Part shown: positions 1-34,009 of the stretch, piece after piece
How the letters are laid out: the number at the start of each line of letters is the position of its first letter
Numbering within the stretch: the stretch's first letter is position 1
Source: Squalus acanthias
Taxonomy: Eukaryota
Length of the DNA stretch: 64,000 nucleotides
Assembly: GCA_030390025.1 (NCBI GenBank)
Contig: JASTWF010000336.1
Location: forward strand, 248,001 to 312,000
Direction of reading: 5' to 3'
Translations under genes and position numbers: made by a program
The notes under the pieces: generated by a model
Databases searched by the model: none
What the model saw: the letters and a program-made list of their open reading frames with translations, nothing else
What the model was told of the DNA's origin: nothing

Positions 1-1
1 C

Positions 2-2896: not shown

Positions 2897-2918
2897 TGCA
2901 CTCCAAGTTGTCCGCTTC

Positions 2919-6723: not shown

Positions 6724-6754
6724 AGTAAGGTAGAGGTTGCACTATGCTCTTGTC

Positions 6755-10655: not shown

Positions 10656-10677
10656 TGCACTCCAAGTTGTCCGCTTC

Positions 10678-11089: not shown

Positions 11090-11376
11090 CAATTGAGTGG
11101 ATGGTCGGGTGGGCGGTGACAGTGGGACTGGCGCGGAACAGGTTTCTTGGGTTATTGGAGTGGATGTTATATGTGGCATTTAGTTGGATTGTGATGGTGC
11201 TATGTGTTTGTACACTGTGGTGTTGAAATGGGTTGTTTTATGTGGAGTTAAGTGAGATGTATTATTTTAATATAAAAAAAAGTGTGGTATTGTTTGGGGG
11301 TATTTGTACTGTATTTTGATGGATGAATGTAATGGTTTTACTATGTAATTTGTATTATTGGTTTGAATAAAAGATT

Positions 11377-11786
11377 CACACCCCTTGGATGTTCCGGCCT
11401 TCTTCTTTTTCTTCTTTCCTCCCCCCACCTACAAAACAAAGTCTCTGGGAGAGTGCCCCAGAATCACACCCACCTGTAGCTGTTGTTCTTTCCTTCCTCC
11501 CTCCTTCCAAACAGATGATGTTTGTTGTTGATGTTTTCTCCCCTCTCTCCCTCTCCTGAAATGGAGGCCAATTGAGGAGGCAGTGTGGAAAGGCCTCTCC
11601 TCTGTTGTTAATGGCCTTGGCCTTCCTTTCCTTCTCCTTCTCCTTCTCCTGTCCTGTCCTCTCTCTCCAGGCACCTCAGTAGTGGTTGTTGGTTGTTGGT
11701 GGTGGTCTGCTGTCTGGTCTCCTTCTCCTTCTCCTCTTCCTGCTCACAGAGACCACCACTCTGCTGCTGCTGCTGCTGCTCCTCAC
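11377..11786 (-). mobile_element. Distal 5' UTR remnant of a Tx1-B copy (B0) whose body is presumably left of the window
   Basis: Homologous to 18553-18966 and 33508-33911. Starts at the (CA)nCCCC site. Confidence 0.88.
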
Positions 11787-11832
11787 AAGCTTGTGATTTC
11801 AAATAAAGCTGTTGGACTATAACCTGGTGTTG
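11787..11832 (+). repeat. 46-bp Penelope-derived target duplication between B copies
   Basis: AAGCTTGTGATTTCAAATAAAGCTGTTGGACTATAACCTGGTGTTG is identical at 11787, 18967 and 33912, and is homologous to 57705-57750. Confidence 0.9.
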
Positions 11833-11898
11833 CTCTTTTTGGTTTGTCAAATCAAAATTTACTGTAATCAATTAAAACTTTAAATGAAACTTAACAAA

Positions 11899-14800: not shown

Positions 14801-15798
14801 CGCAGGGCCGGGTCCTCGACGACTTGACCGAGACGGGACTCCAGGTCGAGCACTTCTTTCTCCAATCGCCCGACCCGGGCCTCCCGCCTCTTGGTCGACC
14901 CCTTCGCGTACTCCTGACAGAAGACGCGGACGTGAGCCTTGCCCACGTCCCACCATAGCCTCAAGGAGGGGAAGCCTCCCCGCTTCCTTCTCCAGTCGGC
15001 CCAGAACCGGCGAAACGAATCCCGGAACCGCGCGTCCTCCAGCAGCAGGTTGTTAAAATGCCAGTACGCGGACCCCCCCCGCGCGCGCAGCGGAGCGAGC
15101 TCCGCCCACACCAGGTGGTGGTCCGTGCACGGCACCGGCCGCATGGAAGCCGCCGGAACGCAGGAGACGTACGCCCGGGAAATGTAAAGGCGGTCGATTC
15201 TGGACCTTCCTCCTCCAGACCTCACGCTCGTGAAGGCGCTGGAGTCGGGATGGAGATTTCGCCAGACGTCCACCAAGTCGAAGGACCCGACCAGGTCCCG
15301 CAACTTCTCCATCGCCGCTGGGCTTCGCGGGGGACCCGACCGGTCCCGCGCCTCGAGGGTACAATTGAAATCCCCCCCGAGGATGACGCACTCGCCCACG
15401 TCGATGGAGCCCAGAAGAGCGGACACTTCTCCGAAGAAGCGCACTTGCTGCGCACCGGTCCGGGGGGCGTACACGTTCACTAAATGGAGCGGCACGCCTC
15501 CCAGGCGAACAGTGACCTGGAGCAAGCGGCCCGGCACGTGCTCCTTGACCCTCAAGATCTCCGGCTGAAAATGCGGGGCCAGCAAGACAGCCACCCCGCA
15601 GGAATTGTTGGAGAGGTGACTCATGCTGACCCCTCCTTGCCACTCCAGGAGCCACGTGGCCTCGTCTCCCGGAACGGTGTGGGTTTCTTGCAGGAAGCAC
15701 ACCGCATATTTCCCGTCCCGAAGGACCGAGAAGTTATTGAATCTACGGCGCGCCTCCCTGCTGCCGTTGATGTTGAGGCTGGCTATGGTTATCTTCAT
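11899..15798 (-). CDS. Tx1-B1 ORF2, intact (1299 aa APE-RT)
   Basis: Open from MKITIASLNING to the stop, with EN, RT (YADD) and CHFC...HIYIEC motifs. Confidence 0.93.
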   Translation of the reverse strand: MKITIASLNINGSREARRRFNNFSVLRDGKYAVCFLQETHTVPGDEATWLLEWQGGVSMSHLSNNSCGVAVLLAPHFQPEILRVKEHVPGRLLQVTVRLGGVPLHLVNVYAPRTGAQQVRFFGEVSALLGSIDVGECVILGGDFNCTLEARDRSGPPRSPAAMEKLRDLVGSFDLVDVWRNLHPDSSAFTSVRSGGGRSRIDRLYISRAYVSCVPAASMRPVPCTDHHLVWAELAPLRARGGSAYWHFNNLLLEDARFRDSFRRFWADWRRKRGGFPSLRLWWDVGKAHVRVFCQEYAKGSTKRREARVGRLEKEVLDLESRLGQVVEDPALRKVYEEKKGALKDLQLVGSRGAYVRSRIQFLRDLDRGSPFFYSLEKRRGVRKQLLGLLADDGSLVSDPEGISAEARAYYGALFSSDPSSEDARRVLWEDLPKVGPEGAENLEAPLSLAELTGALRQLSRGKSPGLDGLTVEFHRAFWDVLGDDYARVLGESLATGEMPLSWRRAVIVLLPKKGDLRLLKNWRPVSLLSTDYKIFARAMSARLGTVLARMIHPDQSYTVPGRSIHDNIHLVRDLVHHSQRAGLSVAFLSLDQEKAFDRVDHEYLFGTLRAFGFGTHFVARIRLLYAAAECLIKVNGSLTAPLRFGRGVRQGCPMSGQLYAVCVEPFLRLLRKRLTGLALQGPGVEVVLSAYADDVLLAVTDPVDLRRMRECQQIYSDASSAKINWEKCSGLLVGPWQVDSLPEEFGPFAWSTTHLLYLGVYLSPAEDAWPANWQELEAKVTARLGRWTGLLRVLSYRGRALVINQLVAAMLWYRLVTLIPPPAFVAKMQKKLVDFFWDKRKHWVSAAVLSLPLREGGQALVCLRTQAATFRLQTLQRYLYVENPPRWRALATYFFRQLHGLNYDTLLLFVRVGGTRASLRELPVFYQELLWVWNSVASERSSPPSGAAAVLREPLFRNPHLHDRGFGWLAEGRAVPGKVTRVGDLLDGGGAGWMAPEELARRMSWVNVRLAVKAIESLKVALGPVSTRCVEEAQARGAIPSELTSVRTEFLIGARPRILPREPPPHHLSLLGEMPSVPFQSARRRFLYGLLLHTLHFAIFVCRPDTPWRTILPSGGGEGPHWKALYAGVFPCSIGDLAWRVLHGAVPCNRILSRFTDSQAACHFCGLEESVYHIYIECERLQPLFHYLKGLLLNFWLHFSPTLLIYGHPVRRGAGRSEDLLVGLLLGLAKKAINWSRQRAVEGVVRPDCLPLFRGHVRARVALEMEHAVSAGTLEFFRDRWAPRGLECIVTPDFQILI

Positions 15799-15823
15799 CT
15801 CAGAAGCATAGTGCAACCTCTAC

Positions 15824-17981
15824 CTAACGGAGGGGAGGGAGGGCGGTCACTGACGACCGCCACTCCCTCAGCAGCCCAGTGTGGAACGTCTTGAGCTGAC
15901 GCAGCTCGAGCCGGCCAACGTCCTTGTCCGCGCCCATGATTTTAACGGCGGCGCGGACGGACACGACGAGCAGCGTCAGCTCCGACCACTTGTCGAGGGC
16001 CAGCCAGATCTTCTTGTGACGACCCTGGCTCATGGCCATAAAATCCCGGAGTTCCCCTACGGGGATGAGGGGAGAGTCGGTGAAGGGCACGAGGGCGTCC
16101 ATCGCCTCGCTGCCGATGGACTCCAAATCGTCCTCGATGCCCCCCACCGAGTCCCCGTCCTCCTCCGGGAGGTCGTCACCGGCGGCCAACCCGTCCGTCA
16201 CACAGGGTGCAGCGAACGGCTCGGCCGCACCGGCCGGCCCCGCCTCCGTCACGATCCCACCCCCAGGATCGGTGGCAGAGGAGTCCACCCTGGGCTCCTT
16301 CAGGGGCGCCGGGCCGGGAGGCGGCGGCGGCGGTTCGGGGCCCCCCCCCCGCCTCAGGCGCCGGGGCGACCGGAGAAACCGGGGAGAAAATAATCCCAAA
16401 TTCCTCCAGCACGTCCGGCGCCAACAACAGAGACGGAGTCAGGGGGCTTTCCGTCTCCCCGCCACCAACCTCCGACCCAGCGGGCTGGGGATTGCTACAC
16501 TCCTCCACCAGGTCGAGCAGTCCCTGGGAGATATCTGGGTTATAAAAGGCGGGCTCGGCTTCAGCCTCTTTGGCCTCGCCCGCCCCAGTCCCCAGGACGC
16601 CCGACCCGGCGAGGAGCAACGGTTCAGGTTCTACATTTTCTTCCGCGGGTTGTTCCGCGCCCCCCCCCACGGGCAGGGTCTCTTCCCCATCCCCGGGAGG
16701 CACAGGTCGGACAGACTCGGCTGTCTCACCCTCCCGAGGGACAGACGACCCCTGCCGATCGCGCGCGACGATGACGGTGGTGGGGTGGGGCGCAGCACCC
16801 GCGGCGGGCGACTGCCCCCCTTTTGCGGAGGGACCTTCCTCCTCGCAGTCCTCCTGCTGGGGGCGGAGCTTTCTTTTTAACGTATTGGGACCCGGAGAGG
16901 GGGAGGCCTCCATGTCTGCTGGGGCCTCCCTCTCTGCCCCCTTCCGACGACTGGGTTTCTTGGGCCCCTCGGGCCCGAGCCCGGCCGCAGGTCTTGATTC
17001 AGCTGCCTCAGCAGTTGCGGTCACGGTCACGGGCCCGGGCACGAGGACCCCCCCAGTCTCATGCGTCCCGACCAACTCCGCGATATACTCGGGCGTGAGT
17101 TCGGTCAATTCCGATGTTTCCTCCGCGAGGGGATCCGCCCTTAGGTGTTTAGTTTTCCTACGCGCCTTCCTTCCCCCCGGACGCTCTCCCTCCTCCCCGC
17201 CGGAGGCCGTGGTGGTGTTGGCCTCCGATTTCAACCGCGCATCCGTCGCCGTCGACGCGCGGACAGTATCAGGGGGAGGGGGGGCGGCAGCGCCAACCCT
17301 GGCCGCGCCAGGTGTCGTGGCGGCCTTGGAGGCGGGGCAGTTTTTGCGGACGTGCCCCACCTCCTTACAGGCGTAGCACCGCGCGCCGTCCGAGGTCCAG
17401 AAGACGCGGTGGGCGGTCCCCCCGTGGAGCACCGTGAACGCGCCGTCCGCGTCCTCCTCCCGCGCCAGCCGGACGAAAAGCTGGCGCCGGAAGGAGAAGA
17501 CGTGCCGAAGGCTGGCTTCCCGGAAGCCGAGCGGGATGGGTGTGATCCCCGACCTCACCTCCCCCAGTTGACGTAGGTGGGGGAGGAGGAGCTCACCCGG
17601 AACAAAGGGCGGGACGTTGGAAACCACAATCCTTTGCGCGGTGGCCTCAAGGGGGTCCACCGGCAGGAAGGTCCCGCCCACGGTGAGCCCCTTCTCGATG
17701 GCCAGGGACACCGCCCGCTCCGACCCCAGGAAGAACACAGCCTTGCCGTACATTTTAGAGGCGGCGACGATGGCTGAAGGGCCGACAACCCCAGCCATGG
17801 CTTTAACGCACGCCTCTATAGTCATGTTGGGGTGAGTGTAGCTCTTGACCCCATTCTTCCTCGTAAGGAGGGTAAAAGGTGACGGGGTAACAGGAGGACT
17901 CGTGGCTGCGGCCGTGGCCGCGGCTGCCACGCTCGCATACGTCCTCGCTGCCCCCGCCACCGACGAAGATGTACTCGCCAT
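15824..17981 (-). pseudogene. Tx1-B1 ORF1 with a +1 shift at a G10 run (16341-16350)
   Basis: CYACKEVGHVRKNC knuckle. Homology to the A ORF1 C-terminus (GGPEPPP...LDKWS) resumes in another frame after the G10. Confidence 0.82.
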
Positions 17982-18966
17982 AATGGAGGGTTCTTTAAGG
18001 GCTACACTCACCCCAAGTCACAGGCCTGAAGGTGTTAATGGCCTCGGTTTTTTATTTCTGTTTTCCCCTGAGCAGAGGGAGCTCTTAAATTGAAGGCACA
18101 CCTCTCCCTTTAGTTGATTGAATTAGGAGAGGGGCCTTCTCCCCTCTGCTCAATAGGTACTTAATTAAAAGATAATGAGGTGCCTCTTAGAGAGAGAGGC
18201 AGAGAGAGACAAGAGACAAAGAGAGAGAGAGAGGGGGGTGGGAAGGAGGGAAGCCGCAAGGGCAGGGTCGCCACTCAGGATGGTGGGTGGGTGGGTGTTG
18301 GCAGGGGGGTGCACTCTCCGATGTAATAAAAGTCTTTGGTGGTGGTCTTCTGGTGGGGGGAGAAGATGTCTTCATCTGGGATAGCTGGAGATGCCCAGGC
18401 TCAGTCCTGCACCAGGTCTTAACGATGCCCAATTGGATTAAATTAATTGGGGAACTTCACCTAGGCAGCTCCAGCTGTCCCAGGTCAGGCAATGGGAAAG
18501 GGGTGTTTAATATGGTGTGTGCGGCCTAGCTTTTACAAAAGCCACACACACACACACCCCTTGGATGTTCCGGCCTTCTTCTTTTTCTTCTTTCCTCCCC
18601 CCACCTACAAAACAAAGTCTCTGGGAGAGTGCACCAGAATCACACCCACCTGTAGCTGTTGTTTTTTCCTTCCTTCCTCCTTCCAAACAGATGATGGATG
18701 TTTTGTTGTTTTCTCCCCTCTCTCCCTCTCCTAAAATGGAGGCCAATTGAGGAGGCAGTGTGGAAAGGCCTCTCCTCTGGTGTTAATGGCCTTGGCCTTC
18801 CTTTCCTTCTTTTCTTTCTCCTCTCCTGTCCTCTCTCTCCAGGCACCTCAGTAGTTGTGGTTGTAGTGGTTGTTGTTGGTGGTGGCCTGCTGTCTGGTCT
18901 GCTTCTCCTTCTCCTCTTCCTGCTCACAGAGACCACCACTCTGCTGCTGCTGCTGCTGCTCCTCAC

Positions 18967-19012: not shown

Positions 19013-19080
19013 ATCTTTTTGGTTTGACAGAACGCAAATTTACTGTAAATCAATTAAAACTTGAAATGAAACTTAATAAA

Positions 19081-22000
19081 TCAAATTAAAATTTGAAAGT
19101 CCGGGGTGACGATGCACTCCAGTCCCCGCGGCGCCCACCGGTCGCGGAAAAACTCAAGCGTGCCGGCGGACACCGCGTGCTCCATCTCCAGGGCCACCCG
19201 GGCGCGAACATGGCCGCGGAAGAGAGGCAGGCAATCGGGCCGAACGACCCCCTCGACCGCCCGCTGCCTGGACCAATTAATGGCTTTCTTGGCCAGGCCC
19301 AGGAGCAGTCCTACGAGGAGGTCCTCCGACCTACCCTCTCCCCTCCGCACCGGGTGACCGTAGATCAGGAGCGTGGGGCTGAAGTGCAACCAGAAATTGA
19401 GGAGCAGCCCCTTCAAATAATGAAAGAGGGGCTGCAACCTCTCACATTCAACATAAATGTGATAAACGGACTCCTCCAGGCCGCAAAAATGACAAGCAGC
19501 CTGGGAGTCCGTAAACCTACTTAAAATCCTATTGCACGGGACTGCTCCGTGCAACACCCTCCGGGCCAAGTCCCCAATAGAACAAGGGAAGACTCCCGCG
19601 TAGAGAGCCTTCCAATGGGGACCTTCGCCTCCGCCGGACGGCAGGATGGTACGCCAAGGCGTGTCCGGACGGCAGACGAAGATGGCAAAGTGGAGAGTGT
19701 GCAGGAGCAGCCCGTACAGGAAACGCCTCCGTGCGGATTGAAAGGGCACGGAGGGCATTTCTCCGAGAAGGCTCAAGTGGTGAGGCGGCGGCTCCCGAGG
19801 GAGGATTCGGGGCCGGGCGCCGATAAGGAATTCCGTCCGAACGGGGGTCAGTTCGGACGGGATCGCCCCACGTGCTTGAGCCTCCTCGACACACCTAGTG
19901 GAGACGGGGCCCAGTGCCACTTTTAGCGACTCGATGGCTTTGACCGCGAGCCGGACGTTGACCCAAGACATGCGCCTCGCCAACTCCTCCGGCGCCATCC
20001 AGCCCGCTCCTCCGCCATCGAGCAGGTCCCCGACTCTGGTCACCTTACCGGGCACAGCCCTGCCCTCCGCCAGCCAGCCGAACCCGCGGTCGTGGAGGTG
20101 CGGATTCCTGAACAGCGGCTCCCGAAGGACGGCCGCCGCTCCTGACGGGGGAGAACTGCGCTCGGAGGCGACGCTGTTCCAAACCCATAGCAGTTCCTGG
20201 TAGAAGACAGGCAGCTCCCGCAGGCTGGCACGCGTGCCACCCACTCTCACAAACAGGAGCTGCGTGTCGTAATTGAGGCCGTGCAGCTGGCGGAAGAAAT
20301 ACGTCGCCAGCGCACGCCACCTAGGAGGATTCTCCACGTACAGGTATCTCTGCAGCGTCTGAAGACGGAAAGTCGCCGCCTGGGTGCGAAGGCACACCAG
20401 CGCCTGACCGCCCTCCCTAAGCGGGAGACTCAAAACTGCGGCAGAGACCCAGTGCTTCCTTTTGTCCCAGAAGAAGTCGACGAGCTTCTTCTGCATCTTG
20501 GCGACAAACGCAGGGGGAGGGATCAAAGTGACCAACCGGTACCACAACATGGCGGCCACCAGCTGGTTTATGACCAGCGCTCGACCCCTGTAGGACAACA
20601 CTCGGAGCAGTCCTGTCCAGCGCCCTAGGCGAGCGGTGACTTTGGCCTCCAGCTCTTGCCAGTTCGCCGGCCAGGCGTCCTCGGCCGGGCTGAGGTAGAC
20701 TCCCAGGTAGAGGAGGTGCGTGGTGCTCCAGGCGAAAGGCCCGAACTCCTCCGGCAGGGAGTCCACCTGCCATGGGCCCACCAGGAGTCCAGAACATTTC
20801 TCCCAGTTGATCTTGGCGGAGGATGCGTCCGAGTAAATCTGCTGGCATTCTCGCATCCTCCGCAAGTCGACGGGATCCGTGACAGCGAGGAGCACGTCAT
20901 CGGCGTAAGCCGAGAGGACCACCTCCACGCCCGGCCCTTGCAGAGCCAGTCCCGTCAACCTCTTCCGCAAGAGGCGCAGGAAAGGCTCCACGCAAACGGC
21001 GTATAACTGACCGGACATGGGGCATCCCTGACGCACCCCCCTCCCGAAGCGAAGGGGCGCCGTCAAAGACCCGTTAACTTTAATCAGACACTCCGCGGCG
21101 GCGTACAGAAGTCGGATCCGGGCGACGAAATGCGTCCCGAACCCGAATGCGCGCAGAGTCCCGAAAAGATACTCGTGATCCACCCTGTCGAACGCCTTCT
21201 CCTGATCCAGGGAAAGGAAGGCGACCGACAGACCAGCCCTCTGGGAATGGTGGACCAGGTCCCGGACCAGATGGATGTTATCGTGGATACTCCGGCCCGG
21301 GACCGTGTAGGACTGGTCGGGGTGGATCATGCGGGCCAGCACGGTGCCAAGGCGAGCAGACATAGCCCTGGCGAAAATTTTGTAGTCCGTGCTGAGGAGG
21401 GAGACCGGGCGCCAGTTCTTAAGTAGGCGGAGATCGCCCTTCTTGGGCAGCAGGACGATGACCGCCCTGCGCCAAGAGAGGGGCATCTCCCCGGTCGCCA
21501 GACTTTCCCCCAGGACCCGCGCGTAGTCGTCCCCCAAGACGTCCCAGAACGCCCTGTGGAACTCCACGGTCAGCCCGTCCAGCCCCGGGGACTTGCCCCT
21601 CGAGAGCTGGCGCAGGGCGCCGGTCAGCTCCGCCAGGCTTAGCGGAGCTTCTAAATTCTCGGCGCCCTCCGGGCCGACCTTCGGCAGGTCCTCCCACAAA
21701 ACTCTGCGCGCATCCTCGCTGGACGGATCCGAAGAGAACAGAGCCCCGTAATAGGCCCGGGCCTCCGCGCTGATGCCCTCCGGATCCGAGACCAGAGATC
21801 CGTCGTCGGCCAGCAGCCCCAAGAGCTGCTTACGGACCCCCCGTCTTTTTTCCAGCGAGTAGAAGAAGGGGGAGCCGCGGTCCAGGTCCCGCAGGAACTG
21901 GATCCGCGACCTCACGTACGCGCCTCGGGACCCGACCAGCTGCAGGTCCTTCAGCGCGCCCTTCTTCTCTTCGTACACCTTCCGCAGGGCCGGGTCCTCG

Positions 22001-22980
22001 ACGACTTGACCGAGACGGGACTCCAGGTCGAGCACTTCTTTCTCCAATCGCCCGACCCGGGCCTCCCGCCTCTTGGTCGACCCCTTCGCGTACTCCTGAC
22101 AGAAGACGCGGACGTGAGCCTTGCCCACGTCCCACCATAGCCTCAAGGAGGGGAAGCCTCCCCGCTTCCTTCTCCAGTCGGCCCAGAACCGGCGAAACGA
22201 ATCCCGGAACCGCGCGTCCTCCAGCAGCAGGTTGTTAAAATGCCAGTACGCGGACCCCCCCCGCGCGCGCAGCGGAGCGAGCTCCGCCCACACCAGGTGG
22301 TGGTCCGTGCACGGCACCGGCCGCATGGAAGCCGCCGGAACGCAGGAGACGTACGCCCGGGAAATGTAAAGGCGGTCGATTCTGGACCTTCCTCCTCCAG
22401 ACCTCACGCTCGTGAAGGCGCTGGAGTCGGGATGGAGATTTCGCCAGACGTCCACCAAGTCGAAGGACCCGACCAGGTCCCGCAACTTCTCCATCGCCGC
22501 CGGGCTTCGCGGGGGACCCGACCGGTCCCGCGCCTCGAGGGTACAATTGAAATCCCCCCCGAGGATGACGCACTCGCCCACGTCGATGGAGCCCAGAAGA
22601 GCGGACACTTCTCCGAAGAAGCGCACTTGCTGCGCACCGGTCCGGGGGGCGTACACGTTCACTAAATGGAGCGGCACGCCTCCCAGGCGAACAGTGACCT
22701 GGAGCAAGCGGCCCGGCACGTGCTCCTTGACCCTCAAGATCTCCGGCTGAAAATGCGGGGCCAGCAAGACAGCCACCCCGCAGGAATTGTTGGAGAGGTG
22801 ACTCATGCTGACCCCTCCTTGCCACTCCAGGAGCCACGTGGCCTCGTCTCCCGGAACGGTGTGGGTTTCTTGCAGGAAGCACACCGCATATTTCCCGTCC
22901 CGAAGGACCGAGAAGTTATTGAATCTACGGCGCGCCTCCCTGCTGCCGTTGATGTTGAGGCTGGCTATGGTTATCTTCAT
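19081..22980 (-). CDS. Tx1-B2 ORF2, intact (1299 aa)
   Basis: Open reading frame with few differences from B1 ORF2. Confidence 0.93.
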   Translation of the reverse strand: MKITIASLNINGSREARRRFNNFSVLRDGKYAVCFLQETHTVPGDEATWLLEWQGGVSMSHLSNNSCGVAVLLAPHFQPEILRVKEHVPGRLLQVTVRLGGVPLHLVNVYAPRTGAQQVRFFGEVSALLGSIDVGECVILGGDFNCTLEARDRSGPPRSPAAMEKLRDLVGSFDLVDVWRNLHPDSSAFTSVRSGGGRSRIDRLYISRAYVSCVPAASMRPVPCTDHHLVWAELAPLRARGGSAYWHFNNLLLEDARFRDSFRRFWADWRRKRGGFPSLRLWWDVGKAHVRVFCQEYAKGSTKRREARVGRLEKEVLDLESRLGQVVEDPALRKVYEEKKGALKDLQLVGSRGAYVRSRIQFLRDLDRGSPFFYSLEKRRGVRKQLLGLLADDGSLVSDPEGISAEARAYYGALFSSDPSSEDARRVLWEDLPKVGPEGAENLEAPLSLAELTGALRQLSRGKSPGLDGLTVEFHRAFWDVLGDDYARVLGESLATGEMPLSWRRAVIVLLPKKGDLRLLKNWRPVSLLSTDYKIFARAMSARLGTVLARMIHPDQSYTVPGRSIHDNIHLVRDLVHHSQRAGLSVAFLSLDQEKAFDRVDHEYLFGTLRAFGFGTHFVARIRLLYAAAECLIKVNGSLTAPLRFGRGVRQGCPMSGQLYAVCVEPFLRLLRKRLTGLALQGPGVEVVLSAYADDVLLAVTDPVDLRRMRECQQIYSDASSAKINWEKCSGLLVGPWQVDSLPEEFGPFAWSTTHLLYLGVYLSPAEDAWPANWQELEAKVTARLGRWTGLLRVLSYRGRALVINQLVAAMLWYRLVTLIPPPAFVAKMQKKLVDFFWDKRKHWVSAAVLSLPLREGGQALVCLRTQAATFRLQTLQRYLYVENPPRWRALATYFFRQLHGLNYDTQLLFVRVGGTRASLRELPVFYQELLWVWNSVASERSSPPSGAAAVLREPLFRNPHLHDRGFGWLAEGRAVPGKVTRVGDLLDGGGAGWMAPEELARRMSWVNVRLAVKAIESLKVALGPVSTRCVEEAQARGAIPSELTPVRTEFLIGARPRILPREPPPHHLSLLGEMPSVPFQSARRRFLYGLLLHTLHFAIFVCRPDTPWRTILPSGGGEGPHWKALYAGVFPCSIGDLARRVLHGAVPCNRILSRFTDSQAACHFCGLEESVYHIYVECERLQPLFHYLKGLLLNFWLHFSPTLLIYGHPVRRGEGRSEDLLVGLLLGLAKKAINWSRQRAVEGVVRPDCLPLFRGHVRARVALEMEHAVSAGTLEFFRDRWAPRGLECIVTPDFQILI

Positions 22981-23005
22981 CTCAGAAGCATAGTGCAACC
23001 TCTAC

Positions 23006-25162
23006 CTAACGGAGGGGAGGGAGGGCGGTCACTGACGACCGCCACTCCCTCAGCAGCCCAGTGTGGAAACTCTTGAGCCGACGCAGCTCGAGCCGGCCAA
23101 CGTCCTTGTCCGCGCCCATGATTTTAACGGCGGCGCGGACGGACACGACGAGCAGCGCCAGCTCCGACCACTTGTCGAGGGCCAGCCGGATCTTCTTGTG
23201 ACGACCCTGGCTCACGGCCATAAAATCCCGAGTTCCCCTACGGGGATGAGGGGAGAGTCGGTGAAGGGCACGAGGGCGTCCATCGCCTCGTTGCCGATGG
23301 ACTCCAAATCGTCCTCGATGCCCCCCACCGAGTCCCCGTCCTCCTCCGGGAGGTCGTCACCGGCGGCCGACCCGTCCGTCGCACAGGGTGCAGCGAACGG
23401 CTCGGCCGCACCGGCCGGCCCCGCCTCTGTCACGATCCCACCCCCAGGATCGGTGGCAGAGGAGTCCACCCTGGGCTCCTTCAGGGGCGCCGGGCCGGGA
23501 GGCGGCGGCGGCGGTTCGGGGCCCCCCCCCCGCCTCAGGCGCCGGGGCGACCGGAGAAACCGGGGAGCAAATAATCCCAAATTCCTCCAGCACGTCCGGC
23601 GCCAACAACAGAGACGGAGTCAGGGGGCTTTCCGTCTCCCCGCCACCAACCTCCGACCCAGCGGGCTGGGGATTGTTAAAGTCCTCCACCAGGTCGAGCA
23701 GTCCCTGGGAGATATCTGGATTGTAAAAGGCGGGCTCGGCTTCAGCCTCTTTGGCCTCGCCCGCCCCAGTCCCCAGGACGCCCGACCCGGCGAGGAGCAA
23801 CGGTTCAGGTTCTACATTTCCCTCCGCGGGTTGTTCCGCGCCCCCCCCCACGGGCAGGGTCTCTTCCCCATCCCCGGGAGGCACAGGTCGGACAGACTCG
23901 GCTGTCTCACCCTCCCGAGGGACAGACGACCCCTGCCGATCGCGCGCGACGATGACGGTGGTGGGGTGGGGCGCAGCACCCGCGGCGGGCGACTGCCCCC
24001 CTTTTGCGGAGGGACCTTCCTCCTCGCAGTCCTCCTGCTGGGGGCGGAGCTTTCTTTTTAACAAGTTGGGGCCCGGAGAGGGGGAGGCCTCCATGTCTGC
24101 TGGGGCCTCCCTCTCTGCCCCCTTCCGACGACTGGGTTTCTTGGGCCCCTCGGGCCCGAGCCCGGCCGCAGGTCTTGATTTAGCCGCCTCGGCGGTTGCG
24201 GTCACGGTCACGGGCCCGGGCACGAGGACCCCCCCAGTCTCATGCGTCCCGACCAACTCCGCGATATACTCGGGCGTGAGTTCGGTCAATTCCGATGTTT
24301 CCTCCGCGAGGGGATCCGCCCTTAGGTGTTTAGTTTTCCTACGCGCCTTCCTTCCCCCCGGACGCTCTCCCTCCTCCCCGCCGGAGGCCGTGGTGGTGTT
24401 GGCCTCCGATTTCGACCGCGCATCCGTCGCCGTCGACGCGCGGACAGTATCAGGGGGAGGGGGGGCGGCGGCGCCAACCCCGGCCGCGCCAGGTGTCGTG
24501 GCGGCCTTGGAGGCGGGGCAGTTTTTGCGGACGTGCCCCACCTCCTTACAGGCGTAGCACCGCACGCCGTCCGAGGTCCAGAAGACGCGGTGGGCGGTCC
24601 CCCCGTGGAGCACCGTGAACGCGCCGTCCGCGTCCTCCTCTCGCGCCAGCCGGACGAAAAGCTGGCGCCGGAAGGAGAAGACGTGCCGAAGGCTGGCTTC
24701 CCGAAAGCCGAGCGGGATGGGTGTGATCCCCGACCTCACCTCCCCCAGTTGACGTAGGTGGGGGAGGAGGAGCTCACCCGGAACAAAGGGCGGGACGTTG
24801 GAAACCACAATCCTTTGCGCGGTGGCCTCAAGGGGGTCCACCGGCAGGAAGGTCCCGCCCACGGTGAGCCCCTTCTCGATGGCCAGGGACACCGCCCGCT
24901 CCGACCCCAGGAAGAACACAGCCTTGCCGTACATTTTAGAGGCGGCGACGATGGCTGAAGGGCCGACAACCCCAGCCATGGCTTTTACACACGCCTCTAT
25001 AGTCATGTTGGGGTGAGTGTAGCTCTTGACCCCATTCTTCCTCGTAAGGAGGGTAAAAGGTGACGGGGTAACAGGAGGACTCGTGGCTGCGGCCGTGGCC
25101 GCGGCTGCCACGCTCGCGTACGTCCTCGCTGCCCCCGCCACCGGCGAAGATGTGGTCGCCAT
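23006..25162 (-). pseudogene. Tx1-B2 ORF1, frameshifted
   Basis: Same G10 run (23522-23531), plus a 1-bp deletion near 23230 relative to B1. Confidence 0.8.
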
Positions 25163-26757
25163 AATGGAGGGTTCTTTAAGGGCTACACTCACCCCAAGTC
25201 ACAGGCCTGAAGGTGTTAATGGCCTTGGTTTTTTTTGTTTTAGTTTTCCCCTGAGCAGAGGGAGCTCTTAAATTGAAGGCACACCTCTCCCTTTAGTTGA
25301 TTGAATTGGGAGAGGGGCCTTCTCCCCTCTGCTCAATGGGTACTTAATTAAAAATAGATGAGGTGCCTCTTAGAGAGAGAGGCAGAGAGAGACAAGAGAC
25401 AAAGAGAGAGAGAGAGGGGGTGGAAGGAGGGAAGCCGCAAGGGCAGGGTCGCCACTCAGGATGGTGGGTGGGTGGGTGTTGGCAGGGGGGTGCACTCTCC
25501 GATGTAATACAAGTCTTTGGTGGTGGTCTTCTGGTGGGGGGAGAAGATGTCTTCACCTGGGATAGCTGGAGATGCCCAGGCTCAGTCCTGCACCAGGTCT
25601 TAACGATGCCCAATAATATTAAGTTAATTGGGGACTTCACCTAGGCAGCTCCAGCTGTCCCAGGTCAGGCAATAGAAAGGGGGTGTTTAATATGGTGTGT
25701 GCGGCCTAGCTTTTACAAAAGCCACACACACACACCCCGAGTGCGGTCCCAGGCGAGGACAGACGGAGGCAGAGGCTGAGGCTGCGAGGGACTCAGCTCA
25801 ACTTGGTGCTGCGTGAACGGGTGAGCGCCGTTTGCTGAGAAGAGGAGGGGAAAGGAGAGGTCTCTTTTCTCTGTGCCTAGAAGGAGAAGGAGCCACGAAG
25901 GACAGAGTGGAGACCTTTCCACCTCCACCACGCCTGCAGCTACAGCTACAACCACGACTGCTGCTGAGGTGAGAGAGGAGAGGAGAGGAGAGGAGAGAGA
26001 GGAGACCAGCAACAACAGAGGGAAGCCTTTCCATCACTGCCTCCCCAACTGGTCTCCATTTCGAGAGAGGGAGAGAGGGGAGAACAAGACCAACATCTGC
26101 TTGGAAGGAGGGAGAGCGAGCCATCGAGAAGGAAAACAACATCGAGAGGTGGGTGTTAAAAAGGGCACTCTCCAAAAGACTTTGTATTTGAGGTGGGGGG
26201 AGGAAAGAAGAAGGAGAAGACCGGGATAGCAAGGGGAGTGTGTGTGGCTCTTGCTAACAACTCGGCCACACACACCATCAACAAGCACCCCTTGCCTATT
26301 GCTTCACATTTTAGAACATTGTTAAGACCTGGTTGTAGACTGAGCCTGGGCATCTCCAGCTTTATTTTTTCCCAGGTGAAGACATCTTCTCCCCCCACCA
26401 GAAGAACATCAACAAAGACTTTATTTATCATCGAAGAGTGCCCCCCCCCCCAGGAGGCACCCACCCACCCACTATCCTGAGTGGCGAATAGGCCCGTGCG
26501 GCTTTCCTCCTTCCCACCCCCTCTCTCTCTCTCTCTCTCTGCCTCTCTCTAACGAGGCACCTCAAACCTTATTTATTACCCAATTGAGCAGAGGGGAGAA
26601 GGCCACTCCCAATTCCAATCATAAAAGGGAGAGGTGTGCCTTCTTTTTCTCAAAACAACTCCCTCTGCTCGGGGGAAAAGACAAAAAAACCCAAGGCCAC
26701 TTAAACATCACCCGGCCTGTGACTTGGGGTGGGTGTAGCCCTTTATACCACCTCAGT

Positions 26758-28845
26758 ATGGCGAGCACATCTTCGCCGGCGGCGGGGCAAGCAAGGTCGT
26801 ACGCGGGTGTGGCAGCCACGGCCACAGCTGGTCCCGCTGCTTCTGCTGCCCCGTCACCTTTCAGGCTATTGACAAAAAAGCTGGGGGTGAAGAGCTACAC
26901 TCACCCCAACATGACCATAGAGGCTTGCGTCAAAGCCATGGCTGGGGTAGTCGGCCCCTCAGCCATCGTTGCGGCCTCTAAAATGTACGGTAAGGCTGTG
27001 TTCTTCCTGCGGTCGGAGCGGGCGGTGTCCCTGGCCGTCACCGAGGGGCTCACCGTGGGCGGGACCTTCCTGCCGGTGGATCCGCTCGAGGCCACCGAGC
27101 AGCGACTCATACTATCGAATGTCCCGCCCTTTGTTCCGGTTGAGCTCCTCCTCCCCCACCTACGTCAACTGGGGGAGGTGAGGTCGGGGATTAATCCGAT
27201 CCCGCTCGGCTGCAGGGAGGCCAGCCTCCGGCACGTCTTCTCCTTCCGGCGCCAGCTGTTTATCCAGCTGGCGCGGGAGGAAGACACGGAAGGCGCATTT
27301 AGCATAACACACGAGGGGACCGCCTACCGCGTCTTCTGGACGTCGGACGGTGTGCGGTGCCACGCCTGTAAGGAGGTGGGGCACATAAGAAAGAACTGCC
27401 CCGCCTCCAAGGCCGCCAAAGCATCTGAGGCGGCCAAGGCTGGCGCCGCCGCCGCTCCTCCCCCTGTTTCTGTCCGCGCGTCTGCGACACCCGATGCGCG
27501 GTCGACGCCGGAGGTCAACGCCGTCGCGGCCTCCGGCGAAGGGGAGGGGGAGCGTCCGACTGGAAGGAAGGCGCGGAGGAAAAGCAAACACCTTCAGGCG
27601 GGTCCCCTTCACATATATGATGACTTACCCGAGCTTACGCCCCTACACCTTGCGCGGGTGGCGGCGGAGTTCGAGAATGCGAGGGACCTTGTGCCCGGGC
27701 CTGCGGCCGCATCCGCCAAGGCGGCAAAATCGAGACCTGCGGCCGTGACCGGGCCCGGGACCCCCGAGCAGACCGATCGACAGGGGGGAGCGGAGGTGGA
27801 GGCCTCGGTATGCATGGAGGTCTCCCAACCTTCGTGTCCCTCCTCTTCGAAAAGGAGGCGCGACATCCTGGATGAGGGGGAGGACCGCGAGGAACGGGGT
27901 CCCCCCTCGCAAGGGGAGTCGTTGCCCGCCGCGGGTGCTGCGCCCCCCCCCACCGACACCATCACCGACATCCGGCAGGGGCCGCCTGTCCCCCGGGAGG
28001 GCATGACAGATGAGTCTGTCCAGCCTGTGCCTCCCGGGGATGGGGGAGAGGCCCTGCTCATGGGGGGGGCCGCGGAACTACCCGCGGTGGGGAGTTACGC
28101 TGATCCGTTGTTTCTCGCCAGGTCGGGCATCCTGGGGACCGGGGCGGGCGAGGCCGATGAGGCAGAGCCCGCCGTGTACGGTCAGGACCACTCCCAGGCA
28201 CTGCTCGACCTGGTTGAGCAATATAACCAGGGTACCTGGTCCGCTGGGTCGGAGGATGGTGGCGGTGAAGGGGAAGGCCCCCTGACTCCGTCTGCGACGC
28301 TGGCGCCGGGGTTGTTGAGGGAACTGGCACTAATGTGCTCCCCGGTTTCCCTGTGCACCCCGGTGCCGGGGGCGGAGGGGGGCCCCGAGCCGCCGCCGCT
28401 TCCTGACCCGGCGCCTCTGGAGGAGCCCAGGGAGGACTCCTCTGCTGCCGATCCTGGGGGTGGGATCGGGGCAGAGGTAGGGCTGGCCGATGGCGACCCC
28501 CCGGAGGAGGACGGGGACCCGGCGGAGGACACTGAGGATGATATGGAATCCGTCGCCAGTGAGGCGGCGGATGCCCTCGTGCCCTCCTCCGGGTCCCCCC
28601 TCATCCCCGTTGTGGAACTCCGGGACTTTGTGGCCATGGGCCAGGGTCGCCAGGATATAATCCGGCTGGCCATCGATAAATGGTCGGATCTGGCGCTGCT
28701 CGTTTGCTCCGTCCGCGCCGCAGTCAAAACCATGGGCGCGGACGGGGGCGTGGGCCTGGCCGAGCGGCGTCGGATCCAGAATTTCCTCGCTGGGCTTGGA
28801 AGGGAGTGGCGGTCGACTAGCGGCCGCGCTCCCTCCTCCCGTTAG
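26758..28845 (+). CDS. Tx1-A3 ORF1, intact (695 aa from the ATG)
   Basis: Conserved N-terminal domain, CCHC knuckle and long Pro/Ala/Glu-rich tail. Confidence 0.88.
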   Translation: MASTSSPAAGQARSYAGVAATATAGPAASAAPSPFRLLTKKLGVKSYTHPNMTIEACVKAMAGVVGPSAIVAASKMYGKAVFFLRSERAVSLAVTEGLTVGGTFLPVDPLEATEQRLILSNVPPFVPVELLLPHLRQLGEVRSGINPIPLGCREASLRHVFSFRRQLFIQLAREEDTEGAFSITHEGTAYRVFWTSDGVRCHACKEVGHIRKNCPASKAAKASEAAKAGAAAAPPPVSVRASATPDARSTPEVNAVAASGEGEGERPTGRKARRKSKHLQAGPLHIYDDLPELTPLHLARVAAEFENARDLVPGPAAASAKAAKSRPAAVTGPGTPEQTDRQGGAEVEASVCMEVSQPSCPSSSKRRRDILDEGEDREERGPPSQGESLPAAGAAPPPTDTITDIRQGPPVPREGMTDESVQPVPPGDGGEALLMGGAAELPAVGSYADPLFLARSGILGTGAGEADEAEPAVYGQDHSQALLDLVEQYNQGTWSAGSEDGGGEGEGPLTPSATLAPGLLRELALMCSPVSLCTPVPGAEGGPEPPPLPDPAPLEEPREDSSAADPGGGIGAEVGLADGDPPEEDGDPAEDTEDDMESVASEAADALVPSSGSPLIPVVELRDFVAMGQGRQDIIRLAIDKWSDLALLVCSVRAAVKTMGADGGVGLAERRRIQNFLAGLGREWRSTSGRAPSSR

Positions 28846-28876
28846 AGTAAGGTAGAGGTTGCACTATGCTCTTGTC

Positions 28877-31800
28877 ATGAAGATAACCATAGCCAGCCTC
28901 AACATCAACGGCAGCAGAGAGGCACGCCGTAGATTTAATAACTTCTCGTCCCTTCGGGAAGGGAGGCATGCGGTGTGCTTCCTGCAGGAAACTCACACCG
29001 TTCCGGGAGACGAGGCCACGTGGCTCCTGGAGTGGCGAGGAAGGGTCAGCATGAGTCACCTCTCCAACGTTTCCGGTGGGGTGGCTATCTTGCTGGCCCC
29101 GCATTTTCAGCCGGAGATCTTGGGGGTCAAGGAGCATGTGCCGGGCCGCTTGCTCCAGGTCACTGTTCGTCTGGGGGGCGTGCCGCTCCATTTAGTGAAC
29201 GTGTACGCCCCCCAGCCCGGTGCGCAGCAAGTGCGCTTCTTCGATGAAGTGTCCGCTCTTCTGGGCACCGTCGACGTCGGCGAGTGCATCATCCTCGGGG
29301 GGGATTTTAATTGTACCCTCGAGGCGAGGGACCGTTCGGGCCCTCCGCGAAGCCTGACGGCGACGGTGAAGTTGAGGGACCTGGTCGGGTCCTTCGACTT
29401 GGTGGACGTCTGGCGAAATCTCCATCCCGACTCCAGCGCCTTCACTTGGGTGGGGTCTGGAGGAGGAAGGTCCAGAATCGACCGCCTTTATATTTCCCGG
29501 GCGTACGTCTCCTGCGTTCCGGCGGCTTCCATGCGGCCGGTGCCGTGCACGGACCACCACCTGGTGTGGGCGGAGCTCGCTCTGTTGCAGGCGCCGGGGG
29601 GGTCCGCGTACTGGCATTTTAACAACCTGCTGCTGGAGGACGTGCGGTTCCGGGATTCGTTTCGCTGGTTCTGGGCCGACTGGAGAAGGAAGCAGGGGGG
29701 CTTCCCCTCCTTGAGGCTATGGTGGGACGTGGGCAAGGCTCACGTCCGTCTCTTCTGTCAGGAGTACGCGAAGGGGTCGACCAAGAGGCGGGAGGCCCGG
29801 GTCGGGCGATTGGAGAAAGAAGTGCTCGACCTGGAGTCCCGTCTCGGTCAAGTCGTCGAAGACCCGGCCCTGCGGAAGGTGTACGAAGAGAAGAAGGGCG
29901 CGCTGAAGGACCTGCAGCTGGTCGGGTCCCGAGGCGCGTACGTGAGGTCGCGGATCCAGTTCCTGCGGGACCTGGACCGCGGCTCCCCCTTCTTCTACTC
30001 GCTGGAAAAAAGACGAGGGGTCCGTAAGCAGCTCTTGGGGCTGCTGGCCGACGACGGATCTCTGGTCTCGGATCCGGAGGGGATCAGCGCGGGGACCCGG
30101 GCCTATTACGGGGCTCTGTTCTCTCCGGATCCGTCCAGCGAGGATGCGCGCAGAGTTTTGTGGGAGGACCTGCCGAAGGTCGGCCCGGAGGGCGCCGAAG
30201 AATTGGACGCTCCGCTAAGTTTGGCGGAGCTGACCGGCGCCCTGCGCCAGCTCTCGAGGGGAAAGTCCCCGGGGCTGGACGGGCTGACCGTGGAGTTCCA
30301 CAGGGCGTTCTGGGACGTCTTGGGGGGCGACTACGCGCGGGTCCTGGGGGAAAGTCTGGCGACCGGGGAGATGCCCCTCTCTTGGCGCAGGGCGGTTATC
30401 GTCCTGCTGCCCAAGAGGGGTGATCTCCGCCTTTTAAAAAACTGGCGCCCGGTCTCCCTCCTCAGCACGGACTATAAAATTTTTGCCAGGGCCATGTCTG
30501 CCCGCCTCGGCACCGTGCTGGCCCACATGATCCACCCCGACCAGTCCTACACGGTCCCGGGCCGGACAATCCACGACAACATCCATCTGGTCCGGGACCT
30601 GGTCCACCTTTCCCAGAGGACTGGTCTGTCGGTCGCCTTCCTTTCCCTGGATCAGGAGAAGGCGTTCGACAGGGTGGATCACGAGTATCTCTTCGGGACT
30701 CTGCGCGCATTCGGGTTCGGGACGCATTTCGTCGCCCGGATCCGACTTCTGTACGCCGCCGCGGAGTGTCTGATTAAAGTTAACGGGTCTTTGACGGCGC
30801 CCCTTCGCTTCGGGAGGGGGGTGCGTCAGGGATGCCCCATGTCCGGTCAGTTATATGCCGTTTGCGTGGAGCCTTTCCTGCGCCTCTTGCGGAAGAGGTT
30901 GACGGGACTGGCTCTGCAAGGGCCGGGCGTGGAGGTCGTCCTCTCGGCTTACGCCGATGACGTGCTCCTCATGGTCACGGATCCCGTCGACCTGCGGAGG
31001 ATGCGAGAATGCCAGCAGATTTACTCGGACGCATCCTCCGCCAGGATCAACTGGGAGAAATGTTCTGGACTCCTGGTGGGCCAGTGGCGGGTGGACTCCC
31101 TGCCGGAGGAGTTCAGGCCCTTCGCCTGGAGCACAACACACCTCCTCTACTTGGGAGTCTACCTCGGCCCTGCCGAGGACACCTGGCCGGCGAACTGGCA
31201 AGAGCTGGAGGCCAAGGTCACCGCTCGCCTAGGACGCTGGACGGGGTTGCTCCGAGTGTTGTCCTACAGGGGTTGAGCGCTGGTCATAAACCAGCTGGTG
31301 GCCGCCATGTTGTGGTACCGGTTGGTCACTTTGATCCCTCCCCCTGCGTTTGTCGCCAAGATACAGAAGATGCTCATCGACTTCTTCTGGGACAAAAGGA
31401 AGCACTGGGTCTCTGCCGCGGTTCTGTGTCTCCCGCTTAGGGAGGGCGGTCAGGCGCTGGTGTGCCTTCGCACCCAGGCGGCGACTTTCCGTCTTCAGAC
31501 GCTGCAGAGGTACCTTTACGTCGAGAATCCTCCCAGATGGTGTGCGCTGGCGACGTATTTCTTCGGCCAGATGCACGGCCTCAACTACGACACGCAGCTC
31601 CTGTTTGTGGAATTGGGCCACACGCGAGCCTACCTGTGGGAGCTGCCTGTCTTTTACCAGGAACTGCTATGGGTCTGGAACCAGGTCGCCTCCAGGCGGA
31701 GTTCTCCCCCGTCAGGAGTGGCGGCTCTCCTTCGGGAGCCGCTGTTCAGGAATCCGCACCTCCACGTCCGACGGATCGGCTGGCTGGCGGAGGGCAGGGC

Positions 31801-32776
31801 TGTGCCAGGCAAGGTGACCAGAGTCAGGGACCTGCTCGATGGCGGAGGAGCGGGCTGGATGGCGCCAGAGGAGTTGGCGCGGCGCCTCTCCTGGGCAGAC
31901 GTCTGGCGCGCGGCCAAAGCCATCAAGTTGCTGAAAGTGGCACTGGGCCCGGACTCCACTAGGTGTATCGAGGAGGCTCAAGCACGTGGGGCGATCCCGT
32001 CCGAACTGACCTCCGTTCGGACGGAATTCCTCATCGGCGCACGGCCCCGAAACCCCTCTCGGGAACCGGCGCCTCACAACTTGAGCCGTCTCGGGGAAAT
32101 GCCCTCCGTGCCCTTCAGTTCTGCACGGAGGGGTTTCCTGTACGGGCTGCTCCTGCACACTTTCCACTTTGTCATCTTCGCCTGCCGTCCGGACACGCCT
32201 TGGCGTGCCATCTTGCCGTCCGGCGGAGGCGAAGGTCCCCAATGGAGGGCTCTCTATGCGGGAGTACTCCCCTTTTCTATTGGGGACATGGCCTGGAGGG
32301 TGCTGCACGGAGCAGTCCCGTGCAATCGGTTTTTAAGTAGGTTCACGGACTCCCAGGCCGCCTGTCTTTTTTGCGGCCTCGAGGAGTCCGTGTTCCACGT
32401 TTATGTGGAATGTGAGAGGTTGCAGCCCCTCTTTGAATATTTGAAGGGGCTGCTCCTCGCTTTTTGGTTGCACTTCAGTCCCACGCTCCTGATCTACGGT
32501 CACCCGGTGCGGAGGGGAGAGAGCAAGTCGGAGGACCTCCTCGTAGGACTGCTCCTGGGCCTGGCCAAAGTGGCCATTAACAGGTCCAGGCAGCGGGCGG
32601 TCGAGGGGGTCGTTCGGCCCAATTGCCTGCCTCTCTTCCGCGGCTATGTTCGCGCCCGGGTGGCCCTGGAGATGGAGCATGCGGTGTCCGCCGGCACACT
32701 TGAAGCCTACCGAGACCGGTGGGCGCCGCAGGGACTGGAGTGCATCGTTTCCCCGGGAAATGTTATTTTAATTTAA
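28877..32776 (+). pseudogene. Tx1-A3 ORF2 with a premature stop
   Basis: CGA changed to TGA at 31274-31276; the frame is otherwise continuous. Confidence 0.9.
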
Positions 32777-32798
32777 TGCACTCCAAGTTGTCCGCTTC

Positions 32799-33210
32799 GC
32801 AGAAGGCCCAAGGTGGAAGACCCGGAGGAGAGTGGCCTGGGCGGGAGGCCCAGCACGGAGAACCCCAGGCGGGGGGCCCAGGGCGGAGCGGCTGGTCGGC
32901 AGAGGTGGAGTCAGGAGATGCGGTTGCTTCACCCCGGGTGCTCGTGGGGAATGCCGGTGCGGAGGGTCCGGTGCAGAAGGCCCAAGGTGGAAGACCCAGA
33001 GGAGAGTGGCCTGGGCGGGAGGCCCAGCACGGAGAACCCCAGGCGGGGGGCCCAGGGCGGGGCGGCTGGTCGGCAGAGGTGGAGTCGGGAGATGCGGTTG
33101 ATTCACCCCGGCTGCTCGCGGGGAATGCCGGTGCGGAGGGTCCGGTGCAGAAGGCCCAAGGTGGAAGACCCGGAGGAGAGTGGCCTGGGCGGGAGGCCCA
33201 GCACGGAGAA
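32799..33210 (+). repeat. 174-bp tandem repeat in the A3 3' UTR
   Basis: Copy of 2919-3330. Confidence 0.9.
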
Positions 33211-33911
33211 CAATTGAGTGGATGGTCGGGTGGGTGGTGCCAGTGGGACTGGCGCGGAACAGGTTTCTTGGGTTATTGGAGTGGATGTTATATGTGGCAT
33301 TTAGTTGGATTGTGATGGTGCTATGTGTTTGTACACTGTGGTGTTGAAATGAGTTGTTTTATGTGGAGTTAAGTGAGATGTATTATTTTAATATAAAAAA
33401 AAGTGTGGTATTGTTTGGGGGTATTTGTACTGTATTTTGATGGATGAATGTAATGGTTTTACTATGTAATTTGTATTATTGGTTTGAATAAAAGATTCAC
33501 ACACACACACACCCCTTGGATGTTCCGGCCTTCTTCTTTTTCTTCTTTCCTCCCCCCACCTACAAAACAAAGTCTCTGGGAGAGTGCCCCAGAATCACAC
33601 CCACCTGTAGCTGTTGTTCTTTCCTTCCTCCCTCCTTCCAAACAGATGATGTTTGTTGTTGATGTTTTCTCCCCTCTCTCCCTCTCCTGAAATGGAGGCC
33701 AATTGAGGAGGCAGTGTGGAAAGGCCTCTCCTCTGTTGTTAATGGCCTTGGCCTTCCTTTCCTTCTCCTTCTCCTTCTCCTGTCCTGTCCTCTCTCTCCA
33801 GGCACCTCAGTAGTGGTTGTTGGTTGGTGGTGGTCTGCTGTCTGGTCTCCTTCTCCTTTTCCTGCTCACAGAGACCACCACTCTGCTGCTGCTGCTGCTG
33901 CTGCTCCTCAC

Positions 33912-34009
33912 AAGCTTGTGATTTCAAATAAAGCTGTTGGACTATAACCTGGTGTTGTGCGACTTCTCACTTTTGTCCACCCCAGTCCAACACCGGCATC
34001 TCCACATCA
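33912..34009 (+). mobile_element. 3' end of the host Penelope-like terminal repeat (pLTR)
   Basis: The 46-bp unit continues TGCGACTTCTCACTTTTGTCCACCCCAGTCCAACACCGGCATCTCCACATCA, matching the reverse complement of 55288-55385 at the Penelope terminus. Confidence 0.88.

Follow-up and report, generated by a model that had tools for sequence, protein, structure and literature searches.

Two families of Tx1-clade long interspersed nuclear elements (LINEs), here named A and B, lie one inside the other in a 64,000-nt stretch of the Squalus acanthias genome (bases 248001 to 312000 of contig JASTWF010000336.1, in a 3.7-Gb assembly); this stretch is hereafter called the window, and all coordinates refer to it unless stated otherwise. 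Judging from the copies here and elsewhere in the assembly, young A copies with a short 5' head reside mostly in one arm of a hairpin in the 5' untranslated region (UTR) of B, whereas copies with a longer head reside upstream of zinc-finger genes; this choice is probably steered by letters of the target that the A RNA would carry at its two ends. The switch of target likely came from these landing-site letters and not from a change in the endonuclease. On what we consider the best reading, R1-like pairing of the RNA flank would make the offspring of a copy favour the kind of site that their donor occupied.

Two classes of insertion site for family A

The full-length copy A3 (25739..33497, plus strand), a member of the short-head subfamily, lies antisense in the 5' UTR of a B copy, B2. 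Its 5' junction reads (CA)6CCCC (25723..25738, plus strand), with a CA run that is B's and a CCCC common to B and to the captured head of A; its 3' junction reads (CA)7CCCC (33498..33515, plus strand), and an empty (CA)7CCCC is found at 18543-18560 in the uninterrupted copy B1, all with the positions and CA counts of a first-pass annotation. That annotation had also reported 3' junctions with one, two, or seven CA units, had placed both visible A 5' ends directly after CCCC, and had described the insertion as separating about 400 bp of distal UTR from B, each of which held upon reexamination: the three junctions are A1/A2 (3618-3623), A2/B0 (11377-11384), and A3, and B2 is split into a body (19013-25722) and a distal UTR of about 400 bp (33516-33911). 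Its reading of the A3 flanks as a target duplication stands insofar as the repeats are present; since the CCCC on the 5' side also belongs to A itself, they do not constitute a plain one. The antisense orientation, likewise, only reflects which strand reads CAC.

Genome wide, 233 A-type 3' ends were found by exact match to a 20-mer and 301 by a 15-mer (control, 47). Regions were retrieved for all 34 ends at B sites, for 20 of the 66 ends in the zinc-finger element described below, and for 78 regions from the first 100 ends listed, a sample from which 20 of the 21 rows of one satellite were dropped and in which two close pairs were merged. Pattern-based classes were corrected by eye (L182, second hairpin arm; L200, ordinary site), leaving the B-site counts unaffected. 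In B-type 5' UTRs, the (CA)nCCCC site is occupied by an A 3' end in 34 cases and empty in 859 (3.8% filled), and the reversed-pattern controls gave zero hits. Among the first 30 empty sites listed, 23 belong to B flanked by P, the repeat that B itself targets, and 7 to a sister family whose UTR is the same; copies of this sister family (L127-L131, L133, L154) are flanked by another target.

The assembly holds 152,415 (AC)6 run ends, while 18 A ends are followed by at least four CA units: six at B sites, one in another Tx1 UTR, three of long copies that all lie in one CA-rich satellite region, and eight of 12-nt fragments in ordinary runs. Compared like for like, 6/893 at B sites against 11/152,415 ordinary CA runs gives an enrichment of about 90-fold, a value that is approximate because the run thresholds differ. 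A copies are thus not spread evenly over CA microsatellites, and the proposed enrichment in B 5' UTRs is borne out; the notion of B as A's specific target is not, since 66 ends lie at an element upstream of zinc-finger genes and more at other sites. Ordinary CA runs thus received 11 ends for 152,415 run ends counted, and A is not microsatellite specific in the manner of Kibi and Koshi, nor is it strictly sequence specific (of 233 to 301 ends, 34 are at B and 66 at the zinc-finger element). The B site holds 13 of the 25 A copies longer than 7 kb but only 1 of 39 shorter ones, 35 of which are found at ordinary sites.

In B, the site corresponds to the 5' arm, a TG run with GGGG, of a 5' UTR hairpin (in B1, 18498..18562, minus strand; z = -4.0, 0/200 shuffles) that is common to the UTRs of A and B (in A3, 26223..26302, plus strand; z = -4.3). 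Both hairpin arms of other Tx1 UTRs, including those of A itself, receive A insertions, as do ordinary CAC sites. Self-immunity of A, its own arm being interrupted in A2 and A3, was considered and rejected, as A-type UTRs are hit in both arms. Sense insertions into the second arm of A-type UTRs were seen at L162, L182, L208, L213/L214, L246, and L250; their 5' junction is resolved in homologous sequence, so that A takes over the leader of its host.

The second main target is an element of about 910 copies upstream of zinc-finger genes (20 of 30 loci have C2H2 motifs no more than 1.5 kb downstream), which is matched by the first bases of A. The A head is a captured piece of this element, beginning CACACCCC, and the empty form of the element has CACACACCCC ahead of the same letters. 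All 66 A-type ends in it use one CA unit though three are available, and 11 of the first 30 belong to a related family, D, sharing its last 60 nt with A. Family D, which has the same zinc-finger target and another 3' UTR, was seen at L159, L163, L166, L167, L190, L231, L232, and other loci; a third Tx1 3' end occurs at the element in L101 and L303.

A heads form an erosion series of about 60, 38, and 16 nt, and head type follows the target at the 3' side: 25 short heads and 1 longer head at B (n = 26), against 15 longer and 2 short heads at the zinc-finger element (n = 17), both of the latter being inversion products. When rooted on the long-head copy that diverges most, a tree puts zinc-finger copies at the base and nests the B-site copies within it; the median divergence is 1.0% for the former versus 0.56% for the latter. 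Open-frame A copies exist in both classes.

Proposed target letters at the 3' end of the A RNA

In the mechanism that we propose, a first nick would be made at CAC and a second about 14 to 15 nt further on. A tail of flanking sequence on the A RNA would pair with the nicked strand, such that B-like sites are favoured when the donor lies in B, and the zinc-finger element when it lies there; the cDNA end would then pair with CA/CCCC of the target, and trimming of the overhang would make the junction look fixed. Events without matching ends would abort as fragments of 12 to 600 nt, and A/B and A/A inverted pairs could recombine into chimeras.

Three sets of observations bear indirectly on the tail. 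First, an A end followed by poly(A) was found in 13 rows at nine places, seven of which have A or D ends; in these orphans, the last A base is followed by 6 to 13 flank letters and then by A's. The length of these flanks fits cleavage 13 to 17 nt past AATAAA, in agreement with the established geometry of polyadenylation, and would mean that the A RNA extends 6 to 11 nt into the flank of its donor. By their letters, one of the seven flanks is B-like, three are zinc-finger- or tandem-like, two were assigned to neither, and one is ambiguous. Second, the off-target sites of copies with the B-linked 3' variant start with CACA in 15 of 23 cases, versus 2 of 14 for the zinc-finger-linked variant (P = 0.006; 13 of 21 and P = 0.007 with two satellite neighbours dropped). 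Third, the 34 B sites use 1 to 8 CA units at the 3' junction, in keeping with the variable first-strand junction proposed earlier, and 27 of them lie no more than three units from CCCC, compared to 40% expected if usage were uniform (P = 3e-6). Pairing of the tail with the primer would account for the one-unit register at the zinc-finger site, for the one- to three-unit bias at B, and for the subfamily-specific signature off target.

Micro-insertions that consist of only the last 12 nt of A or D, poly(A) signal included, lie between 14- to 17-bp (twice, 26- to 28-bp) duplications at L237, L324-L326, L329, L331, L334-L336, L339, L341, L343-L346, L348, and L351-L355, and one locus has three of them in tandem. 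Such bare inserts make up 12 of the first 30 rows listed from the 15-mer search, and since inserts of 13 to 19 nt were searchable yet hardly seen, reverse transcription may come to a halt after some 12 nt. In a satellite-like array (L169; C4:43928423-43935396), the same spacer of 10 to 12 nt comes after each of 21 short A 3' ends. An Rfam scan of L106, L145, and L289 returned nothing at gathering level.

Endonuclease and ORF1 in the two target groups

By sequence, A and B are Tx1-clade LINEs with a pair of open reading frames (ORFs); ORF2 has an N-terminal APE endonuclease and a reverse transcriptase. Tx1L of Xenopus is the closest named protein by similarity (52% identity to A2 ORF2 over 1036 aa; 50% to B ORF2 over 100% of its length), and the ORF2 products of A and B are 88% alike. 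While A2 and A3 are both broken and the frames of B1 and B2 are open, both frames are open in 13 of 56 full-length A rows elsewhere in the genome (one locus counted twice). A also displays 5' truncation and target duplications, hallmarks of target-primed reverse transcription.

The endonucleases of A and B differ in the hairpin loop (W191S, G193R), the loop that was exchanged by grafting in the work on the LTx structure and interpreted there as helping to determine the target (PMC1950540). Within A, the endonuclease is identical to that of A2 in 5 of 15 zinc-finger-site copies and in 7 of 23 B-site copies, and a sequence comparison revealed no endonuclease residue separating the two groups.

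Several observations weigh against a guiding role of the RNA ends. The B-site and zinc-finger-site groups represent essentially one lineage contrast, so that P values do not show cause; moreover, the tree, whose root we chose ourselves, places three zinc-finger-site copies within the B-site group. The short head is still a better match to the zinc-finger site than to B, and the head alone therefore predicts the wrong target. Tandem donors have a tail of the zinc-finger-like kind, yet none of the short-head copies had a zinc-finger 5' flank. The orphans are few (seven places, one ambiguous) and were probably moved by another enzyme, and 11 of 34 truncated copies lack a duplication. Finally, ORF1 differs between zinc-finger-site and B-site copies: position 268 is I in 14 of 14 copies of one group versus 2 of 22 of the other, and position 494 is R in 10 of 10 versus 1 of 14. 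These near-fixed differences keep a protein-based explanation alive, in which the endonuclease nicks CAC in accessible, hairpin-prone promoter DNA, changes in ORF1 moved the short-head lineage from zinc-finger promoters to Tx1 UTRs, and the RNA flank only tidies the junctions. Insertion into both arms of a conserved inverted repeat would fit this explanation, as would the loop differences between A and B at the reported determinant (PMC1950540). It gives no account, however, of off-target sites that follow the subfamily tail, of the single register in all 66 zinc-finger junctions, or of the orphans with flank plus poly(A), and the endonuclease is the same in both target groups; we regard it as unlikely, albeit deserving of serious weight.

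Improbable, in our view, is a filter by selection, under which full-length A would enter many CAC sites and long copies outside repeats would be purged, leaving the B and zinc-finger clusters plus short fragments. Long copies are indeed concentrated in repeats and short ones at ordinary sites, but the 152,415 ordinary (CA)n run ends, which should on average be as safe as B, hold only the three long copies of one CA-rich satellite region, and the match between head and target is left without account.

Independence of the insertions into B

The insertions of A into B look like separate events, as had been proposed from the CA counts. Among 23 filled copies, pairs of A with 0 to 3 differences (65 informative columns) sit in hosts that differ at 4 to 14 of 24 downstream columns, and near-identical A copies in different B haplotypes carry different CA counts. 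Formal testing of independence is weakened by the mosaic nature of B copies: Mantel tests gave r = 0.10 (P = 0.13, low power) for A versus downstream B and r = 0.20 (P = 0.049, borderline and of low power) for A versus upstream B, the latter with one member of an exact duplicate pair, L247/L248, dropped. A first Mantel value of r = 0.47 was driven by this pair and was discarded, and a window test for co-transfer of the upstream B flank gave r = 0.24 (P = 0.03) only with L247 kept. That one or a few A-in-B units were instead spread by retrotransposition of B, duplication, or gene conversion appears quite improbable. In line with such spread, almost all on-target A copies are long, there is an exact duplicate pair, the upstream correlation is weakly positive, and the distal UTRs of B0 and B2 in the window are free of substitutions; against it stand the near-identical A copies in dissimilar hosts with different CA counts, the downstream result, and the several 5' head types found among hosts.

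Formation of the 5' junction

Almost all A insertions start at CAC. Among truncated copies at ordinary sites, CAC is the starting point in 21 of 23 (plus variants) of the larger class, with C, A, and C at positions 1 to 3 in nearly all, and 23 of 34 truncated off-target copies have duplications of 12 to 24 bp, 22 of them of 12 to 19 bp. At a B site, a headless 12-nt insert (L237) is flanked by a 14-bp duplication that ends 8 nt past CCCC. In L178 and L197, CCCC stands ahead of the head at the A 5' end though the downstream flank is without CCCC, and in L244, the T-interrupted CA run of the host was not faithfully copied to the 5' side. Heads carried to non-native sites keep their own deletions and substitutions. 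Most full-length junctions read CCCC and then head; junctions with 0 to 6 C's also occur at B sites. The second cut had been proposed to be fixed after CCCC, a claim contradicted by the duplication in L237, by the 12- to 19-bp duplications elsewhere, and by the CCCC in L178 and L197. Given L237, L178/L197, and the run copying in L244, the constant CCCC junction is best read as the outcome of cDNA-end pairing with the target followed by trimming. The complete first-pass scheme, which combines a variable first nick, a second cut fixed after CCCC, and a role of A as suppressor of B, is very improbable: CCCC-head junctions and the breaking of a conserved UTR hairpin speak for it, but the headless insert with its 14-bp duplication, L178 and L197, the 0 to 6 C's at B-site junctions, and the 3.8% of B-type sites hit speak against it.

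Consequences for B and rearrangements

An A insertion disrupts the hairpin and separates the ORFs from the distal UTR, a putative internal promoter according to the first-pass annotation, which makes loss of transcript from that B copy plausible. With 96% of B-type sites empty, inactivation of B by A would be at most marginal, and no spread of A-in-B composites was seen. Insertion of A in B does create a 7-kb inverted repeat. L183 (with L304 and L305) is a chimera of a B endonuclease and an A 3' end, while in L235 (with L256) and L288, A is rearranged with A in an order consistent with inversion. Such inversions, of antisense-nested A with B or with another A, yield domain chimeras and may be either real or assembly errors. 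L183 was considered as proof that target follows the 3' UTR and was rejected as such, its context fitting inversion.

Relation to other site-specific LINEs

Target changes in site-specific LINEs are usually attributed to changes in the endonuclease. Here, old and new targets coexist in one young family (0.6 to 1.0% divergence) whose endonuclease is the same for both, whose open-frame copies occur in both classes, and for which apparent records of RNA ends exist; what the RNA flank, the 5' head, and ORF1 each contribute is therefore separable. If the RNA flank steers target choice, a vertebrate APE-type LINE would here have been retargeted naturally under RNA guidance, which would make it interesting for gene-insertion tools. 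Possible, though we put it forward only tentatively, is a broader reading: target choice would be inherited through donor position, with some 10 flank letters as guide, and a single insertion into a sister UTR would have founded a self-renewing lineage without endonuclease change. The outcome would be a three-tier chain of a Penelope-like element, B, and A, and a route for target change in Tx1 elements and, via nested inverted copies, for domain swaps.

Tx1L of Xenopus laevis (YTX2_XENLA) resembles A and B in having an APE endonuclease and a reverse transcriptase (ORF2 50 to 52% identical) and resembles A in targeting another mobile element, the transposon Tx1D (PMC1950540). Its endonuclease is described as highly specific, whereas in A the core spans 3 to 6 nt, there are two main targets, and off-target fragments are numerous; unlike that of Tx1L, the target of A is the UTR of a sister LINE. 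For the crocodilian Tx1-Mar, Tx1-9_AMi, and Tx1-8_Crp and for Kibi and Koshi, the available part of one survey (Kojima 2015, PMC4494074) gives sites in Mariner, Harbinger, or long terminal repeat (LTR) elements or in microsatellites; it also reports tandem insertions and flank-derived 5' extensions in Tx1 families and states that co-transcription with the target strengthens targeting. None of the Tx1 families in that part is described as inserting into the UTR of another Tx1 family, as having a CA-run target, or as having changed target within the family.

The pairing logic proposed here is that proposed for R1 of Drosophila, in which (Stage and Eickbush 2009, PMC2718515) downstream target sequence borne by the RNA may pair with the nicked strand and upstream target sequence on the RNA leads to precise 5' junctions; flank pairing at both ends is likewise in print for R1Bm and SART1Bm (PMC7265360). 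A shares with these elements 14-bp duplications, tandem arrays, and off-target inserts (for R1-type elements, with a 4- to 9-bp likeness to the target). The target-derived head that gives A a precise 5' junction is a further R1-type trait. While R1 has one canonical target (28S), A has two target classes within one family and with one endonuclease, and its newer target is a sister retrotransposon. In the literature searched, which excluded subscription journals, Repbase, and supplements, we found no Tx1 family targeting the UTR of a sister LINE; nor did a search outside subscription journals and Repbase yield a target switch with an unchanged endonuclease.

Organization of the window

With 60 kb upstream included, the order of the locus is repeat P, the B0 body, eight tandem A copies, the B0 distal UTR, and a 46-nt P spacer, followed by intact B1, a spacer, the B2 body, A3, the B2 distal UTR, and the rest of P. 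The 3' part of A1 (158..3617, plus strand) is separated from its 5' part, upstream of the window, by a 9.3-kb LTR element; the A1/A2 junction (3618-3623) is an A-A tandem, formed by the last two of the eight copies stacked in one B site. A2 (3624..11376, plus strand), a full-length short-head copy with frameshifts in both ORFs, closes this tandem and is followed by its (CA)2CCCC junction, the B0 distal UTR (minus strand), and the P spacer (together, 11377..11832). B1 (11833..18966, minus strand) is uninterrupted, with open ORFs. In B2, the body (19013..25722, minus strand) comprises the proximal UTR and ORF1 and ORF2, both open, and is separated by A3 from the distal UTR (33516..33911, minus strand).

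A3 itself (all features on the plus strand) starts with a 16-nt head (25739..25754), an eroded copy of the zinc-finger-gene upstream element targeted by older A copies. ORF1 (26758..28845; 695 aa) is open and shows 63% identity to B ORF1, while the frame of ORF2 (28877..32776), encoding the APE endonuclease and reverse transcriptase, is broken by a stop at 31274-31276. The 3' UTR contains 2.4 copies of a 174-bp tandem repeat (32799..33211), and the last 12 nt (33486..33497), with the AATAAA signal, are the 12-mer that occurs alone as micro-insertions elsewhere.

The LTR element inside A1 (9,272 bp; window positions 1-157 plus upstream sequence, contig bases 238886-248157) has identical 1,622-bp LTRs, a 4-bp duplication, and four frames of 370 to 620 aa, for which a Pfam search gave no match. 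P (33912..34009, no strand assigned) consists of the 46-nt piece that recurs between B copies (33912-33957) and a continuation. The 5' end of B bears a 46-nt copy of P, and B copies are stacked in head-to-tail order (11787-11832, 18967-19012, 33912-34009); some B heads have an inverted piece of the target added. A putative Penelope-like element (55288-57762) carries the P repeat at its 3' end, with a piece of P in inverted orientation on the 5' side; the ORF beside the P copy (55660-57291, minus strand) has a weak reverse transcriptase match and no Pfam GIY-YIG match. By eye, its C terminus carries what we take to be a GIY-YIG-like motif. Long, diverged satellite arrays with 41/46-bp units occupy positions 49763-61294.

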